From the IMG/VR virus record IMGVR_UViG_2531839180_000007: DNA of 40,019 nucleotides. One strand, 5' to 3'. The stretch is from a virus. Lineage: Duplodnaviria; Heunggongvirae; Uroviricota; Caudoviricetes. The translations under genes were made by a program, and so were the position numbers. Below are positions 22,430-29,295 of the stretch, in pieces. Positions within the stretch are counted from its first letter, which is position 1, and each line of letters opens with the position of its first letter. The notes beneath the pieces were generated by a model. It had not been told where the DNA came from. It saw nothing but the letters and a program-made list of their open reading frames with translations, and searched no databases.

Positions 22430-22978
22430 ATGTTTGATTTTACTCATTTTGAAGAGTTGACTTTAGCATCCCATCAACCCGATAGAATAATGACTATAGT
22501 TCGGTCCCAAGATGACATTGGTATCTATCTCCGCACTCACCTTTTGATTGAACAAATCTTGGAAGCTTGGATTATCTGTGCCTCTGGTAACAGGGATTTC
22601 TTCAGCGGTTTTGGCGAAAATATCAACATGGATTTTGCCATTAAAGCTCAGCTTGCGATGAACTATGGGATGAGCTCAGAGCTAAACAAATTTATTCGAA
22701 GGTTCAACAACTTCAGAAACAAACGTTCACATCAAATTAACAACTCTGACATCACTAACAGTGAGATTGACTCCTTAACAAGTCTAATGGAGCACGGTTA
22801 CCCTGATAGCTTGACCCCCATTAGAGATTTTAAGCTTGGGGTTTACGGAGCAGAAACTAGGGTTGTAAGTTTCACGGGATCCTCTACAAGCTTACGCGAT
22901 AAGCTCATTATGTTATTCGCTATGTTTTCCATGAGGGTACATTACGAAGCAAAATGCTTAAGCACGCCACAGAGCTAG
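22430..22978 (+). CDS. Hypothetical protein, first gene of the AT-rich accessory cassette (182 aa)
   Basis: ATG with an upstream aagga RBS; G+C visibly lower than flanking genes; opposite strand to the late operon; no motif recognised. Confidence 0.6.
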   Translation: MFDFTHFEELTLASHQPDRIMTIVRSQDDIGIYLRTHLLIEQILEAWIICASGNRDFFSGFGENINMDFAIKAQLAMNYGMSSELNKFIRRFNNFRNKRSHQINNSDITNSEIDSLTSLMEHGYPDSLTPIRDFKLGVYGAETRVVSFTGSSTSLRDKLIMLFAMFSMRVHYEAKCLSTPQS

Positions 22979-23056: not shown

Positions 23057-23617
23057 ATGATCCATACGGTACATTTTTTGACAGATGTTACAGTTGCCTC
23101 TGTAACTAATCTGATGGATGTCTGCTTAAAAGCAGTTTCAAATACTAATCAACCAGCAACAGAAATTAAGCTCTATATTTCCAGCAAAGGTGGAGATACA
23201 GTTTCAGGCTTTACTGCTTACAATTTTTTAAAGTCACTTGGTGTAAAGGTTACTACGCATAACCTCAGTAATGTTGAATCAATCGCAAACGTGATCTATA
23301 TGGCTGGAGAAGTGCGAACTGCCAACCCACTTTCTCGCTTCCTTCTTCACCCACTGCATTGGGGGTTCGCCGCACCCAGCGCAGATCACCTACGATTGAG
23401 AGAATGGGCTTCATGCCTCGATGACGATCTAAATCGATTTATTCAAATCATGGATATTGAAACAAAAAAGAAAAATCCAAGTGAGATTGCTGATTGGAAG
23501 GATTTGATCACTTCGGCAACCATCCTTCATCCCGGAAGGGCCTCCGAGTTGGGAATTGTTCATCAAGTCGAGGCTGCAACCATACCCACGGAATCGATCC
23601 GCTGGTGGGTACTTTAA
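23057..23617 (+). CDS. ClpP-family (S14) serine protease paralog, 186 aa
   Basis: Aligns by eye to E. coli ClpP: FLTD versus FLTG, IKLYISSKGG versus IYLYINSPGG, a Ser in ..VESIANV.. at the catalytic Ser position, LLHPLHWG versus MIHQPLGG (His), and WKDLI versus RDRFL (Asp). gaggag RBS upstream. Confidence 0.7.
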   Translation: MIHTVHFLTDVTVASVTNLMDVCLKAVSNTNQPATEIKLYISSKGGDTVSGFTAYNFLKSLGVKVTTHNLSNVESIANVIYMAGEVRTANPLSRFLLHPLHWGFAAPSADHLRLREWASCLDDDLNRFIQIMDIETKKKNPSEIADWKDLITSATILHPGRASELGIVHQVEAATIPTESIRWWVL

Positions 23618-23902: not shown

Positions 23903-24179
23903 CCGCAACAGCCACTTTGATATCTTTCTGGGTTCTCTGTGACTCCAGTGCGATCTGCTGTTTTGCATGCTGGTTAACCTCTATAACTGTATTGACGAGT
24001 TGCAGTGATTGCAGGACGTTACGGGTAATGGCTGTTGCAGATTCAGCATTTTGTACAGCCTCATCAGCACGTTTCTTTTCGTGCTGATATTTGCTGTAGT
24101 AGTGGTTGGCAGACCAGATGAAAGAACCAATGACAGTAAAGAAGAATGCAGCGATAACCAGCTTATAGCTCAACTTCAT
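23787..24179 (-). CDS. i-spanin (Rz-like)
   Basis: 130 aa; N-terminal transmembrane segment followed by predicted coiled coil; directly downstream of the endolysin. Confidence 0.65.
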   Translation of the reverse strand: MKLSYKLVIAAFFFTVIGSFIWSANHYYSKYQHEKKRADEAVQNAESATAITRNVLQSLQLVNTVIEVNQHAKQQIALESQRTQKDIKVAVADDDCAAGLVPAAAAERLRKYANSLREHSGGSVTSHPDG

Positions 24180-24639
24180 TTACCACCCCACCTGCCTCTT
24201 TAAACCGGGAAATCAGGTCACTGATTTTATGTTCATACTGACCGTAACCTGCACCAGGTAACGACGCCCAGATATTGCTGCAACGATCGATAGCCTGACG
24301 GATATCACCGCGATCAATCATCGGTAAAGCGCCACGCTCTTTAATCTGCTGCAATGCCACAGCATCCTGGCTTTTGGGAGAGAAGTCTTTCAGGCCAAGC
24401 TGCTTGCGGTAGGCATCCCACCAACGGGAAAGAAGTTGATAACGGCCTGCAGCTGTTGACTTGAGTTTCGGATTTAGCGTGACAAGTTTGCGAGGGTGAT
24501 CGGAGTAATCAGTGAATAGTTCACCACCAACAATAACGTCATAACCGTGGTTATGTGTCGGTTGTCGCCCGTTATCCGTTCCCTCTGACCATGCCACCAT
24601 ATCCAGGAAAGCTTTACGCTGGGAATTTAGTACCTGCAT
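24163..24639 (-). CDS. R: Endolysin, lambda R-type lytic transglycosylase
   Basis: 158 aa, near-identical by recall to lambda R (..NQRKAFLDM.AWSEGTDNGRQ.T.NHGYDVIVGGELFTDYSDHPRKLVTLNPKLKST..). Confidence 0.9.
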   Translation of the reverse strand: MQVLNSQRKAFLDMVAWSEGTDNGRQPTHNHGYDVIVGGELFTDYSDHPRKLVTLNPKLKSTAAGRYQLLSRWWDAYRKQLGLKDFSPKSQDAVALQQIKERGALPMIDRGDIRQAIDRCSNIWASLPGAGYGQYEHKISDLISRFKEAGGVVNEVEL

Positions 24640-24642
24640 AAA

Positions 24643-24924
24643 TTACTCCTTAGAGCCACCAAACTTGTTACCGATTACTCTCATTGCAGCCCCACGAATA
24701 GCATCAACACCGATCAGCCCCACCCCACCACCAATGGCAACAGATAGTGATTTAGGCCATCCGACATACTCAAGAGCGGATGCAAAAGTCAGCGTCAGAG
24801 CACCACAGAGCAAAATCTCGAGCGTTTTTCGCTTCCAGCCACCCCCCCGCCAAAATAGGCAATGCGCAAGCCAGCCATAACGATCGACATAATCACTGCA
24901 CCCAGCGGTGTGTCTCCACGCCAC
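24643..24924 (-). CDS. Holin-like membrane protein, C-terminal frame (two predicted transmembrane segments)
   Basis: 93-aa ORF with hydrophobic segments and a charged C-terminus ..IGNKFGGSKE immediately upstream of R. Overlaps the upstream ORF across a G7 tract. Confidence 0.5.
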   Translation of the reverse strand: MAWRHTAGCSDYVDRYGWLAHCLFWRGGGWKRKTLEILLCGALTLTFASALEYVGWPKSLSVAIGGGVGLIGVDAIRGAAMRVIGNKFGGSKE

Positions 24925-25064
24925 CAGCTCTGTAACAGTTCAAGTAAATCAGGCCAGGAATGAGGATCGTTGTGCATTTCATAATTCCCACCTCCGATTA
25001 CCGGAAGTGCCACAAGTAAAAGGGAAAGAAGCTGGTTATAACGCTGATTTGCAGAAGTGCGCAT
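24795..25064 (-). CDS. Holin-like membrane protein, N-terminal frame
   Basis: 89-aa ORF with two hydrophobic segments; its frame and the downstream holin-like frame overlap at the homopolymer 24842..24848. Confidence 0.45.
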   Translation of the reverse strand: MRTSANQRYNQLLSLLLVALPVIGGGNYEMHNDPHSWPDLLELLQSWWRGDTPLGAVIMSIVMAGLRIAYFGGGVAGSEKRSRFCSVVL

Positions 25065-25088
25065 AAAAAAGGCCGCCCGTAGGCGGCC
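25063..25088 (-). terminator. tR'-like intrinsic terminator between the Q-proximal small gene and the lysis genes
   Basis: Minus-strand hairpin ggccgcc-tacg-ggcggcc followed by TTTTTT. Confidence 0.65.
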
Positions 25089-25106
25089 TCAAAAATCTTA
25101 TTTTCA

Positions 25107-25310
25107 TCATCGCGAAGGATGGAGGGTTTTATGACGAGGTTTAATGTAAACCTCATAGGAATGAGACAGCTTGTCTACTTCTCTAATTGGTAATTCCCAA
25201 CCAGTATTCAACAGAATACTTTTCTGAGTAGCAGACACTAACACTGAGCCAATCTCAATATTATTTGCAATTGCCACGACCTTCTTGGTCGTGTGTTTAC
25301 TATTTTGCAT
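25107..25310 (-). CDS. Hypothetical small protein (67 aa) between Q and the tR'-like terminator
   Basis: Strong RBS aaaggagatcacc before the ATG; AT-rich; followed by an intrinsic terminator. Confidence 0.55.
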   Translation of the reverse strand: MQNSKHTTKKVVAIANNIEIGSVLVSATQKSILLNTGWELPIREVDKLSHSYEVYIKPRHKTLHPSR

Positions 25311-25502
25311 GGTGATCTCCTTTCAACCAGCATCACAAATGTGATGGAGATCACAATATCACTTGTTCAAAAAACATGCAACATAAAACCCACCTGAGCG
25401 GGTTTATAAAAGTTAGACATTCAATGCCCATCTTTACGTTAAGGCTAACCATATTTTTTGAAAATTGCAAGCATTGTGCGGAGAAAATCATTAAAAATGT
25501 AG

Positions 25503-26255
25503 CTATCGTGTCACTTTTTGCAACTGTAACTCTGCGAATGCTTCTTCCTGCCAGCACTTTGTTACCAGTTTATCAATGACGTCTGCATATCCTTTGTACC
25601 ACTGATAATCCGTCAGGTCTGGTACCAGCTTCTGGACATGAAGCCGCGCCAGTGTGGTTGGTAAACGGCTAAACCGGTTTCCATTGCAACGCCCACAAAT
25701 CTTATAAACAGGCGTGCCATGAAGCCGGGTTCTTTTTTCATCCAGGACAATACCTTTACCCTTACACCCTCTGCACGCGGTGCTGACTTCTCCCTTACCA
25801 TGGCAATGCTGACATAGTTCCTTCACCCACTCTTCCTTGATAACAGATTCCCCGCTTCTGGAGTGTTTCACCACTTCGCGCAATACATTATGAAATCCAG
25901 TACCAGCACAATGCTCACAGCGAGCCTTACTTGCCGCAGACCTGGAATAATCAGCAAAGGCAAAATTCACAAGGTAAGGGATGATCTGTAACCGGGTTTC
26001 TTCACTCAATTTGTTCAATGTCGGGTTATCCAGTGCCATCGCGTAATTGAGCAGACCTTCAATCGCAAACTGAGGATCCTGAACACCAACTTTTGCCAGG
26101 AATAAGGCAAACCCAAGCGGTGCTTTCGACTGCACCATCCCCTGCGCAGCCATCACATCCGTAATCGTTAAACCACCTGAGCCTGTCGCCGGTGCGTCAT
26201 CGCTCAATTTTGGAGATTTTGGGGAGTAATATTTTGGTAAGGCTTCAAGGTTCAT
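25503..26255 (-). CDS. Late-gene antiterminator Q (Zn-binding, lambdoid Q family)
   Basis: About 250 aa with Cys-rich motifs (CEHCAGTG, CQHCHGKG, CRGCKGKG, CGRCNG); ggaga RBS before the ATG at 26255; positioned upstream of the lysis module. Confidence 0.7.
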   Translation of the reverse strand: MNLEALPKYYSPKSPKLSDDAPATGSGGLTITDVMAAQGMVQSKAPLGFALFLAKVGVQDPQFAIEGLLNYAMALDNPTLNKLSEETRLQIIPYLVNFAFADYSRSAASKARCEHCAGTGFHNVLREVVKHSRSGESVIKEEWVKELCQHCHGKGEVSTACRGCKGKGIVLDEKRTRLHGTPVYKICGRCNGNRFSRLPTTLARLHVQKLVPDLTDYQWYKGYADVIDKLVTKCWQEEAFAELQLQKVTR

Positions 26256-26268
26256 GCTCGTTCTCCAC

Positions 26269-28094: not shown

Positions 28095-28484
28095 TCAGGC
28101 GGCTGCACCCGCCGTTTTCTCGTACTTACTGATAGTGATCTCGACCTTCCCTTTCGGGATAACCGGTCCCCACTCAACCAGCATTCTTTTCACCTGGCTG
28201 TCGTCTTCCCACACACCCGCGTGGGTCAGGGCGTCAAACAGCGCCTTGTTATAGTTGTCCAGATCGCGGATCCGGTTATCCGGAGGAAACAACACGATCT
28301 CCACTGAAGCAGGTGCCGACGTTGGTTTCGGCAGACGACGTAACTGCTCAACTATTGCTGTGCACGCCGCACTCTGGAATTTTCGCCCCGCCGCGCTTAT
28401 CAGGCTCTTACCAGCAAATGCCCCTTTGTTGGGGTGTCGCCAGTAGGTGTTCACGCTGGGTGGAAAAGGCAGAATCAGCTTCAT
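28095..28484 (-). CDS. rusA: Holliday junction resolvase RusA
   Basis: 129 aa beginning MKLILPFPPSVNTYW with the conserved RusA Asp-rich region (..IRDLDNYNKALFDAL..). Confidence 0.85.
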   Translation of the reverse strand: MKLILPFPPSVNTYWRHPNKGAFAGKSLISAAGRKFQSAACTAIVEQLRRLPKPTSAPASVEIVLFPPDNRIRDLDNYNKALFDALTHAGVWEDDSQVKRMLVEWGPVIPKGKVEITISKYEKTAGAAA

Positions 28485-28807
28485 ACTTTCAGCCCCCTCT
28501 CATGTAACCAGTGGGCTGCACGCGGCCTGGCGTTTTCCTCACCAGCAAGCAGTGCGCGGATAATCCCGGCCGCCTCGCTATCGTCGTCCTTCACCGCGGT
28601 ATGAAGCGTGATGCCCCGGGCCACGCCACGCTTTATCGTGATGACGCCTTTTTTCTCCAGTGCGCGAAGATGCTCCACCGCTGCATTCACTGAACGGTAT
28701 CCCAGCATGGTAGCCACCTCCTGATTGGTTGGCGGGAAGCCACGTTCTTTCTGGTAAGAAATCAGCATATCCAGCACCTGCTGCTGGCATTGAGTTAACG
28801 TCGTCAT
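28481..28807 (-). CDS. Putative DNA-binding protein with a LexA-like winged-helix N-terminal domain
   Basis: About 108 aa from the ATG at 28807; ..LTQCQQQVLDMLISYQKERGFPPTNQEVATMLGYRSVNAAVEHLRALEKKGVI.. resembles the LexA DNA-binding domain. Confidence 0.5.
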   Translation of the reverse strand: MTTLTQCQQQVLDMLISYQKERGFPPTNQEVATMLGYRSVNAAVEHLRALEKKGVITIKRGVARGITLHTAVKDDDSEAAGIIRALLAGEENARPRAAHWLHERGLKV

Positions 28808-29295
28808 TAAGCCCCCACGTAATTCCCTGACAGATACCACTCTTCACCCGATGCAGCGCGCTTGCTGCTTTTCCGTAAGCACCGCTCACGACGCGCCAGA
28901 AAATTGTTTCGTTCTGGCTGGGAGTGGCTTTCACGGAATGCCTCCATCCACACCGTTGCAGCTCGACGGAATAAGCCCCTGGACTCCAGTTCTTCAGCCT
29001 GGCGGGTCAGGCACAAAATCACCCGGGGGTCGTTAGTGCCGACATAGAAATTGCGCACAGGTCTGGTTTCACAAACTGGTTCCGGCTCCTGCGATATCTC
29101 AGCCTGGCGCGGGAAATGTCTGCGTGTATCCTCTTCACAACGGTGAGCCACACGCCCACTCTGACGTAACTTGCTTGCTGACTGCAGAACTCGCTGCCGT
29201 GAGTAACCTGCAAAAGCATCCGCAATGTCTCCGGAAGTACACCCCGGATGGGCTTCAATGAATTTCTGAACGTCATTCAAAAGGCTCATGATCAC
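28807..29295 (-). CDS. Hypothetical protein of the replication/nin region
   Basis: 162-aa ORF directly downstream of the O-like initiator; function not recognised. Confidence 0.4.
   Translation of the reverse strand: MIMSLLNDVQKFIEAHPGCTSGDIADAFAGYSRQRVLQSASKLRQSGRVAHRCEEDTRRHFPRQAEISQEPEPVCETRPVRNFYVGTNDPRVILCLTRQAEELESRGLFRRAATVWMEAFRESHSQPERNNFLARRERCLRKSSKRAASGEEWYLSGNYVGA

Follow-up and report, generated by a model that had tools for sequence, protein, structure and literature searches.

The phage sequence IMGVR_UViG_2531839180_000007 (Caudoviricetes) harbors a small open reading frame (ORF) of 67 amino acids (aa) between the gene for the late antiterminator Q and the lysis genes. The interval from Q to the holin gene probably consists of two tandem transcription units on the minus strand, namely a short leader that extends from the late promoter pR' to a small terminator hairpin (t1), and a self-contained accessory unit, in which the small ORF is preceded by a candidate promoter (P2) and followed by a strong terminator (t2). 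The whole stretch of DNA that was analyzed, 40,019 nucleotides (nt) long, is referred to as the window; coordinates are those of the whole window and all features of this locus lie on its minus strand. The small ORF (25310..25107, with the ATG at 25310 and the stop at 25107; phrog_25981, protein WP_001181554.1) is separated from Q by a spacer of 192 base pairs (bp), and a Shine-Dalgarno sequence AAGGAG (25321..25316) lies 6 nt before its ATG. Q itself (26258..25503) encodes a protein of 251 aa of the Q-lambda family (QuuQ/YdfT-like; PF03589, E 1.2e-52), whose RefSeq relatives are named 'antitermination protein Q'. The guanine plus cytosine (G+C) content is 36% in the spacer between Q and the ORF, 39% in the small ORF and 39% in the segment 25063..25381, compared with 48% in Q, 50% in the lysis genes and 50.6% in the whole window. 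An earlier reading of the same letters (the first-pass annotation) had described an ORF of 67 aa with a strong ribosome binding site downstream of Q, an intrinsic terminator immediately before the lysis genes and an AT-rich interval between them, and all three features were confirmed here.

A conserved cassette surrounds the small gene

Ten lineages of the small-gene family were compared in their genomic context, and the 80 nt before the ATG were aligned. Wherever the flanking sequence sufficed, the small gene was found between Q and the holin gene. The Q proteins matched PF03589 (window, L004, L010 and L028), PF06323 (L013), PF06530 (L017 and L030) or DUF1133 (L019), and two lineages have no recorded match to a Q family. 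The Citrobacter-type loci (L004, L010 and L028) additionally carry a DNA methylase gene between the small gene and the holin gene. In three lineages, Q and the small gene are separated by a gene on the reverse strand, namely in L017 (3005..3796, methyltransferase-like), L019 (3285..3764, 159 aa) and L030 (2481..2780, DUF6650). A pR'-like block with a t1-like hairpin is located downstream of the reverse gene in L017 and L030, and no t1 adjoins P2 in L019.

The candidate promoter P2 (25381..25353) comprises a -35 element TTGCAT (25381..25376), a spacer of 17 nt, a TG dinucleotide (25361..25360) and a -10 element TATTGT (25358..25353), which would place the start of transcription at about 25346/25345. 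Across the ten lineages the TTG is invariant, the 17-nt spacer is divergent in sequence, and the -10 element has the form TAnTGT, with an invariant TA and a nearly invariant final T. A TGn motif often precedes this element, in the style of extended -10 promoters. The block is read as a promoter because the positions that are kept are those that sigma-70 reads (the TTG of the -35 element, and T-12, A-11 and T-7). As synonymous sites are saturated between the lineages, the conserved non-coding positions must be under selection.

A second conserved feature is a hairpin, AUCACA-UU-UGUGAU (25345..25332), with which the predicted P2 mRNA would begin; it was identified by covariation and by minimum free energy folding. 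The predicted P2 start falls exactly at its foot. All ten lineages keep the hairpin, with 91.7% of cells paired in the alignment as against at most 57.6% with a slid partner. Three pairs have changed on both sides, and none of 500 shuffles reached the observed covariation score; the arms TCACA/TGTGA are replaced by TCGCA/TGCGG and by TCACGAA/TTCGTGA in other lineages. An Rfam scan of the region returned only sub-threshold matches driven by the terminator.

The third conserved feature is the terminator t2 (25090..25063), which forms a stem of 9 bp (GAGGCCGCC/GGCGGCCUU, 25090..25082/25077..25069) with a run of six U, of which the first two take part in the stem. It folds with -19.7 kcal/mol, a value reached by none of 200 shuffles, was flagged by the scan tool and ends about 85 nt before the holin start. 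A motif of the form (A)GGCYGCC-N4-GGYGGCC-T-run follows every family member examined, although the ORFs share only 36-50% identity, which makes t2 far more conserved than the coding sequence. A plausible reason for this conservation is that read-through would express the lysis genes. In the E. coli locus L031 (described below), another cargo gene is likewise followed by a t2-like terminator, which indicates that t2 is not specific to the small gene.

The interpretation of P2 requires some caution. P2 agrees with the sigma-70 consensus in 7 of 12 positions (plus TGn) and is thus weak, it was not called by the scan tool in the window or in any lineage tried, and its support is the phylogenetic footprint of ten lineages only. 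Furthermore, in L034 (Escherichia coli HB-Coli0), which has the same Q, pR' and t1, a hypothetical ORF of 85 aa (2249..2506) begins 17 nt past t1 and has neither a promoter-like block nor a terminator of its own before the holin genes. This ORF is Q-dependent cargo in the same slot, and it follows that slot occupancy alone does not imply autonomy. The small ORF could likewise be the first Q-dependent late gene, in which case the conserved block would not be a promoter but would serve the late transcript as an RNA or DNA element, such as a stabilising or translational hairpin or a protein-binding site that modulates read-through. The weak consensus match of P2 and the arrangement in L034 are in line with this explanation, as is the position of the small gene, which always heads the late operon whatever the Q family. 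However, the TTG, the 17-nt spacing and the TA...T are kept even in L019 and L022, where t1 does not adjoin the cassette, a strong and conserved terminator before the holin gene would have no evident role if all transcripts were antiterminated, and the hairpin begins exactly at the would-be P2 start. A purely Q-dependent small gene is thus an unlikely alternative, albeit one to be taken seriously, and P2 is predicted on balance to be a functional promoter.

A CRP-like palindrome overlaps the predicted P2 start

The region around the predicted P2 start was also analyzed for potential regulator binding sites. The consensus core for binding of the cyclic AMP (cAMP) receptor protein CRP is TGTGA-N6-TCACA. 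A palindrome conforming to it, TGTGATCTCCATCACA (25355..25340, reading alike on both strands in its core), overlaps the last three bases of the P2 -10 element as well as the predicted start, and its centre is located about 2 bp upstream of that start. It matches the core in 10 of 10 positions and the textbook 22-bp consensus in 18 of 22 (own count), and it is the sole exact TGTGA-N6-TCACA in the 40-kb window, where 0.08 would be expected by chance. The form TGTGA-N6-TCRCR is present in eight of the ten lineages, and a ninth has GGTGA as its left half. Because the site covers the -10 element and the start of P2 and would compete there with polymerase, repression is the expected outcome of CRP binding.

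Three observations speak against this assignment. The left half of the palindrome is missing in L022, the right half doubles as the 5' arm of the hairpin, so that part of the conservation has another explanation, and CRP sites are not usually centred so close to a start point. Repression of P2 by cAMP-CRP is accordingly put forward as a tentative prediction, which is somewhat less probable than the activity of the promoter itself. CRP was also considered as an activator and rejected, as transcription from a class II arrangement would begin within the ORF, some 3-4 nt beyond the ATG; a convincing antisense promoter was not seen either. LexA, Fur and other operator consensus sequences were compared by eye and ruled out. 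When 185,579 species genomes were searched for the palindrome and the t2 pattern at ORF distance, 73 matches were obtained, one of which is a true module (Citrobacter youngae). The other 72 are taken to be chance matches, as by their titles they belong to unrelated taxa, many of them with high G+C.

Two further observations concern this region. A 9-nt element, GUGAUCUCC (25354..25346, minus strand), is perfectly complementary to the Shine-Dalgarno region GGAGAUCAC (25320..25312, minus strand); it lies just upstream of the predicted P2 start and would occur solely in RNA that reads through from pR'. Silencing of the Shine-Dalgarno sequence by this pairing was rejected as a general mechanism, because the complementarity is absent in other lineages and broken (GUGAUCUUC) in the common E. 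coli variant. In L017 (about 3840..3880) and L023 (about 800..840), the presumed late-promoter block holds a second motif like GATAGTGTGAT...GTCACAAAG, which resembles the P2 palindrome. A Q of the Q21 family (PF06530) is recorded in L017 and L030 and presumed in L023, a short contig without Q.

The late promoter and its probable leader terminator

The late promoter pR' (25470..25442) has a -35 element TTGCAA (25470..25465), a 17-nt spacer and a -10 element TAGCCT (25447..25442). It follows the layout known from lambda, and its position is kept in relatives. Based on homology, transcription is predicted to start at 25435, and a sigma-dependent pause element, AAAGAT at +1 to +6 followed by GGG (AAAGATGGG), is assigned to 25435..25427. 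The order TTGCAA-17-TAGCCT-6-AAAGATGGG corresponds to TTGACT-17 nt-TAAATT-6 nt (tgactc)-AACGATGGG in lambda, the pause element being located 6 nt past the -10 element in both. AACGATGGG occupies the pause position in every relative read (Citrobacter, mEp460, L031 and L034). The -10 element of the relatives is TAGTAT or TAGCAT in Citrobacter prophages, TAAGAT in mEp460 and TAGGAT in other E. coli prophages; the pR' of the window falls under the 9/12 threshold of the scan tool. The 70 bp after Q are common to mEp460, Ayreon, SfV, Stx2c phages and about 800 E. coli prophages. PF03589 represents the Q-lambda family (Yin et al., PMC9388147), and in lambda Q loads at the sigma-dependent pause element (PMC9388147). 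The element in the window presumably serves the same function.

The hairpin t1 (25405..25381, hairpin to 25386) consists of the stem AAACCCGC/GUGGGUUU, the loop UCAG and the tail UUUUAUGU. Its folding energy is -10.8 kcal/mol, which none of 200 shuffles attained. It is located about 30 nt past the pause element, and the leader is predicted to be about 50 nt long. All relatives with this promoter (mEp460, Ayreon, Citrobacter and E. coli) have a hairpin with a U tract equally far from pR'. Its counterpart in the Citrobacter orthologue was called by the terminator scan and that in Ayreon is annotated as 'terminator', and the homology to the roughly 800 E. coli prophages stops at t1. These findings make t1 very probably the leader terminator and the counterpart of lambda tR', located upstream of the small ORF. 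As judged by these sequence features, Q, pR', the pause element and t1 together would constitute a late regulatory cassette of the lambda type.

Since t1 separates the pR' start (about 25435) from the ATG at 25310, the small ORF is outside the 6S-like transcript. In the first-pass annotation, which had overlooked t1, the ORF was assigned to a constitutive pR' transcript because of its position ahead of tR', and the terminator before the lysis genes was taken as the tR'-like one. Neither proposal was upheld, as t1 intervenes before the ORF and t2 is a second terminator, t1 being the analogue of tR'. To retain that model, t1 would have to be ineffective, so that the constitutive leader runs through the ORF to t2 as the real tR'. 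Some features of the window favor this and weigh against t1 as an efficient barrier: the stem is weakened by a G.U pair (25392; G-C in the majority variant), the U tract is interrupted (UUUUAUGUU tail), the window copy was not called by the scan tool, and t2 is by far the stronger hairpin (-19.7 versus -10.8 kcal/mol). Some read-through from pR' into the small ORF via a weak t1 is therefore possible. Against an ineffective t1 stands the presence of such a hairpin, at an unchanged spacing from pR', in every relative with the promoter. Most of these have a perfect stem and 6-7 U, among them the majority E. coli variant of this prophage. Moreover, t1 is the only terminator before the unrelated late cargo of L034. 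Transcription of the small gene as part of a constitutive pR' leader is thus improbable, and termination at t1 ahead of the gene is the preferred reading.

The small gene encodes a conserved protein family

Relatives of the small protein were identified by a word-indexed search of 5.8 billion proteins and by a full HMMER scan of 1.84 billion cluster representatives. The family comprises 11 further clusters with 36-78% identity and lengths of 61-70 aa, and thus twelve including the window. A single PHROG, phrog_25981, whose function is unassigned in PHROGs, is matched by all twelve. Frame, length and motifs are kept across the twelve clusters down to 36% identity, and the pairwise ratio of nonsynonymous to synonymous substitutions (dN/dS) is 0.2-0.5 where it is measurable, synonymous sites being saturated between the deeper lineages. 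A good Shine-Dalgarno sequence is present in all ten lineages compared. The common E. coli variant of the gene differs from that of the window by two synonymous changes, and the protein (WP_001181554.1) is identical. The small ORF is thus almost certainly a real coding gene. That it is a chance frame in a non-coding leader, as its shortness, the very small family and the lack of a match in Pfam, NCBIfam and PADLOC might suggest, is effectively refuted already by the twelve clusters with conserved frame, length and motifs, the dN/dS values, the Shine-Dalgarno sequences in all lineages, the mostly synonymous changes in E. coli and the confidence of the structural model.

The gene is conserved in related prophages, though rare; absence of such conservation had been named in the first-pass annotation as an argument against its proposal. 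Among 5426 complete E. coli genomes, 32 carry the small gene, compared with about 800 that contain the pR' segment and 1259 that contain the holin gene. The diverged types L013 and L019, which originate from metagenomes or draft genomes, had no match in the same 5426 genomes. A tblastn search with the small protein detected no copy in 50,697 deposited phage genomes, and no free phage in that set has the family. The family is confined to lambdoid prophages of Escherichia, Citrobacter and relatives.

A check of homology and structure, also suggested in the first-pass annotation, yielded the relatives in phrog_25981 and an all-beta model, but no known family or fold. No model of Pfam, NCBIfam or PADLOC matched the small protein, and comparison with the PDB (including a profile search) and BFVD gave no significant sequence or structure match. 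The AlphaFold2 model, calculated from the alignment of 12 sequences, contains five beta strands and no other secondary structure class (mean predicted local distance difference test [pLDDT] score of 81, predicted template modeling [pTM] score of 0.62). The C-terminal tail, P-(R/H)-H-(K/N)-x-x-(H/N)-P-S-x-W, is conserved and was modeled with low confidence; it is probably flexible, as expected of an interaction motif. The protein is basic, with an isoelectric point of about 10 in most members, and hydrophilic, and the grand average of hydropathy (GRAVY) scores of the family give no sign of a hydrophobic segment. It is taken to be soluble and to act on a host or phage partner. The lambda orf-64, which is annotated in the same interval, was ruled out as a relative (hhalign probability 0.3%).

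The Q-to-holin slot as a cargo site

Other genes occupy the same slot in related prophages. L031 (E. coli LP-26-E1-261, NZ_CM144251.1) shares Q, pR' and t1 with the window and harbors an unannotated ORF of 80 aa (2240..2482), followed by the t2-like terminator mentioned above. The encoded protein is cysteine-rich with paired CxxC motifs, and it has no match in Pfam or PADLOC. In mEp460, Ayreon and L032, the slot contains a gene annotated with 138-141 aa, a terminator, an unrelated ORF of 67 aa and a methylase gene; Q, pR' and t1 of mEp460 and L032 are again those of the window. L033 (strain 23CRST009) has a related holin gene and a Q of 144 aa ('antiterminator Q family'), and between them a terminator and no gene.

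Accessory genes of this kind are known as morons. They are recognized by a position between genes that are adjacent in relatives, an own promoter, an own terminator, deviant composition and expression from the repressed prophage; the concept and the expression in lysogens have been reviewed (PMC7067206). The small gene is inserted between genes that are neighbors in relatives, it has its own factor-independent terminator, and its base composition is deviant. As for an own promoter, the TTG-17-TAnTGT pattern is shared by ten lineages, with the weak consensus match and the negative scan result given above. The best reading of the small gene and its cassette is an autonomous moron that is insulated by t1 and t2. 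Expression without Q, decoupling from lysis and acquisition of the interval had already been suggested in the first-pass annotation. These suggestions are plausible by way of the promoter-like cassette, t2 and the cargo slot, but not by way of a pR' leader.

Lysis genes and other accessory genes

The holin gene downstream of t2 (24977..24643; lambda family, PF05106) is frameshifted in the window and intact, with 111 aa, in strain GN25. It is followed on its 3' side by a GH104 endolysin gene (24639..24163) and then by Rz-like genes. Compared with GN25 and LP-26-E1-261, the holin gene of the window has one base fewer in a G run (C7 on the plus strand, 24842..24848), which breaks the frame after about 43 codons. 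The missing base points either to decay of the prophage or to an error in sequencing the homopolymer. The holin start region (24982..24975, minus strand) reads ATGAAATGCAC in the window and ATGAAAATGCAT in LP-26-E1-261. The latter has a dual-start motif like that of lambda S (M-K-M); the window and GN25 have one A fewer and a single in-frame start. The pR' -10 element of the window, TAGCCT, is likewise poor in comparison with TAGGAT, TAAGAT and TAGTAT of relatives, and its pause element has AAAGAT, not AACGAT. Both the holin gene and the late control region may be undergoing decay.

Between the lysis cassette and the HNH/terminase genes, two genes are encoded in antisense orientation to the late operon. 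The first (22430..22978, plus strand) encodes a ClpP-like protease of 186 aa (PF00574, E 2e-12) and the second (23057..23617, plus strand) a protein of 182 aa for which no family was matched; neither has a match in PADLOC. This gene pair is probably another accessory locus. In the nin region, a gene upstream of RusA (28481..28840, minus strand) encodes a protein of 119 aa with a LexA-type DNA-binding domain only. This LexA-type protein is present in most, but not all, prophages with the small gene.

Proposed function of the locus

The following course of events is proposed. In the lysogen, pR' would fire constitutively and transcription would stop at t1, yielding the leader of about 50 nt. By shutting pR' transcripts out of the small gene, t1 would leave P2 alone to set the level of expression. 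P2, as a weak sigma-70 promoter of the extended -10 style, would give rise to an mRNA of about 280 nt, which may be stabilised by the 5' hairpin, and t2 would shield the lethal holin and endolysin genes from P2 transcripts. Binding of cAMP-CRP might occlude polymerase at the -10 element and start of P2, in which case the gene would be made mainly at low cAMP. After induction, Q-modified polymerase from pR' would pass t1, the ORF and t2, which would make the small protein the first of the late products as well. The architecture as a whole, with a pR'-t1 leader and a moron equipped with P2 and t2, appears to be the likely arrangement.

A more far-reaching, quite speculative idea is that the small protein is under catabolite control, is made in the lysogen and targets either the late switch, such as RNA or polymerase at pR', t1 or t2, or the holin. 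It is considered very improbable, although such an activity would account for the fact that the small gene, with its regulatory cassette and terminator, invariably heads the late operon under any of three unrelated Q families. If it were true, the nutrient state, via cAMP-CRP, would be tied to the leakiness or timing of late-gene and lysis expression.

The analysis corrects the map of the late leader, the analogue of tR' being the small hairpin some 50 nt downstream of pR' and not the strong terminator before the holin gene. It also defines a small, previously unannotated protein family (phrog_25981) that moves into the Q-to-holin slot as a cassette of promoter, operator, hairpin, gene and terminator. 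Should P2 and the CRP site work as predicted, the cassette would enable safe expression from the prophage beside the lysis cassette, with a terminator on each side and a level tied to the carbon status of the host. The small gene is a rare example of a well-known type of element and as such a routine accessory gene, and the conserved regulatory cassette is a useful detail. The biological pay-off hinges on the activity of the small protein.

Comparison with known systems

The leader of the window shares with the lambda late leader a promoter directly after Q, a pause element of the form A-A-x-G-A-T-G-G-G, a Q protein in PF03589, and the production of a short constitutive transcript that would end at an intrinsic terminator passed by Q-modified polymerase. 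The two differ in length, as the lambda 6S leader has 194 nt and that of the window is predicted to have about 50 nt. They also differ in the extra unit of promoter, gene and terminator before the holin gene of the window, owing to which the late transcript must pass two terminators.

With regard to the textbook class of CRP-repressed promoters, in which the site covers the -10 element or the start, the site in the window is predicted to be alike in core and placement. In contrast to these promoters, the right half-site in the window serves as an arm of an RNA hairpin, and another regulator of similar specificity could use the site.

Among accessory elements, the closest parallel is provided by the lambdoid morons as defined for HK97 and HK022. 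Examples are bor and lom of lambda, and the Q-to-S slot is a known cargo site that harbors stx in Stx phages and cspB/cspF, between quuQ and essQ, in the Qin prophage of K-12. The unit in the window resembles these morons in that it comprises a single small gene with a putative promoter of its own, a strong terminator and a lower G+C content, located between genes that are adjacent in related phages. It differs from them in two respects. The small protein belongs to a family without known function or fold, its expression in the lysogen being a prediction, and the whole cassette travels with the small gene across prophages of three named Q families.

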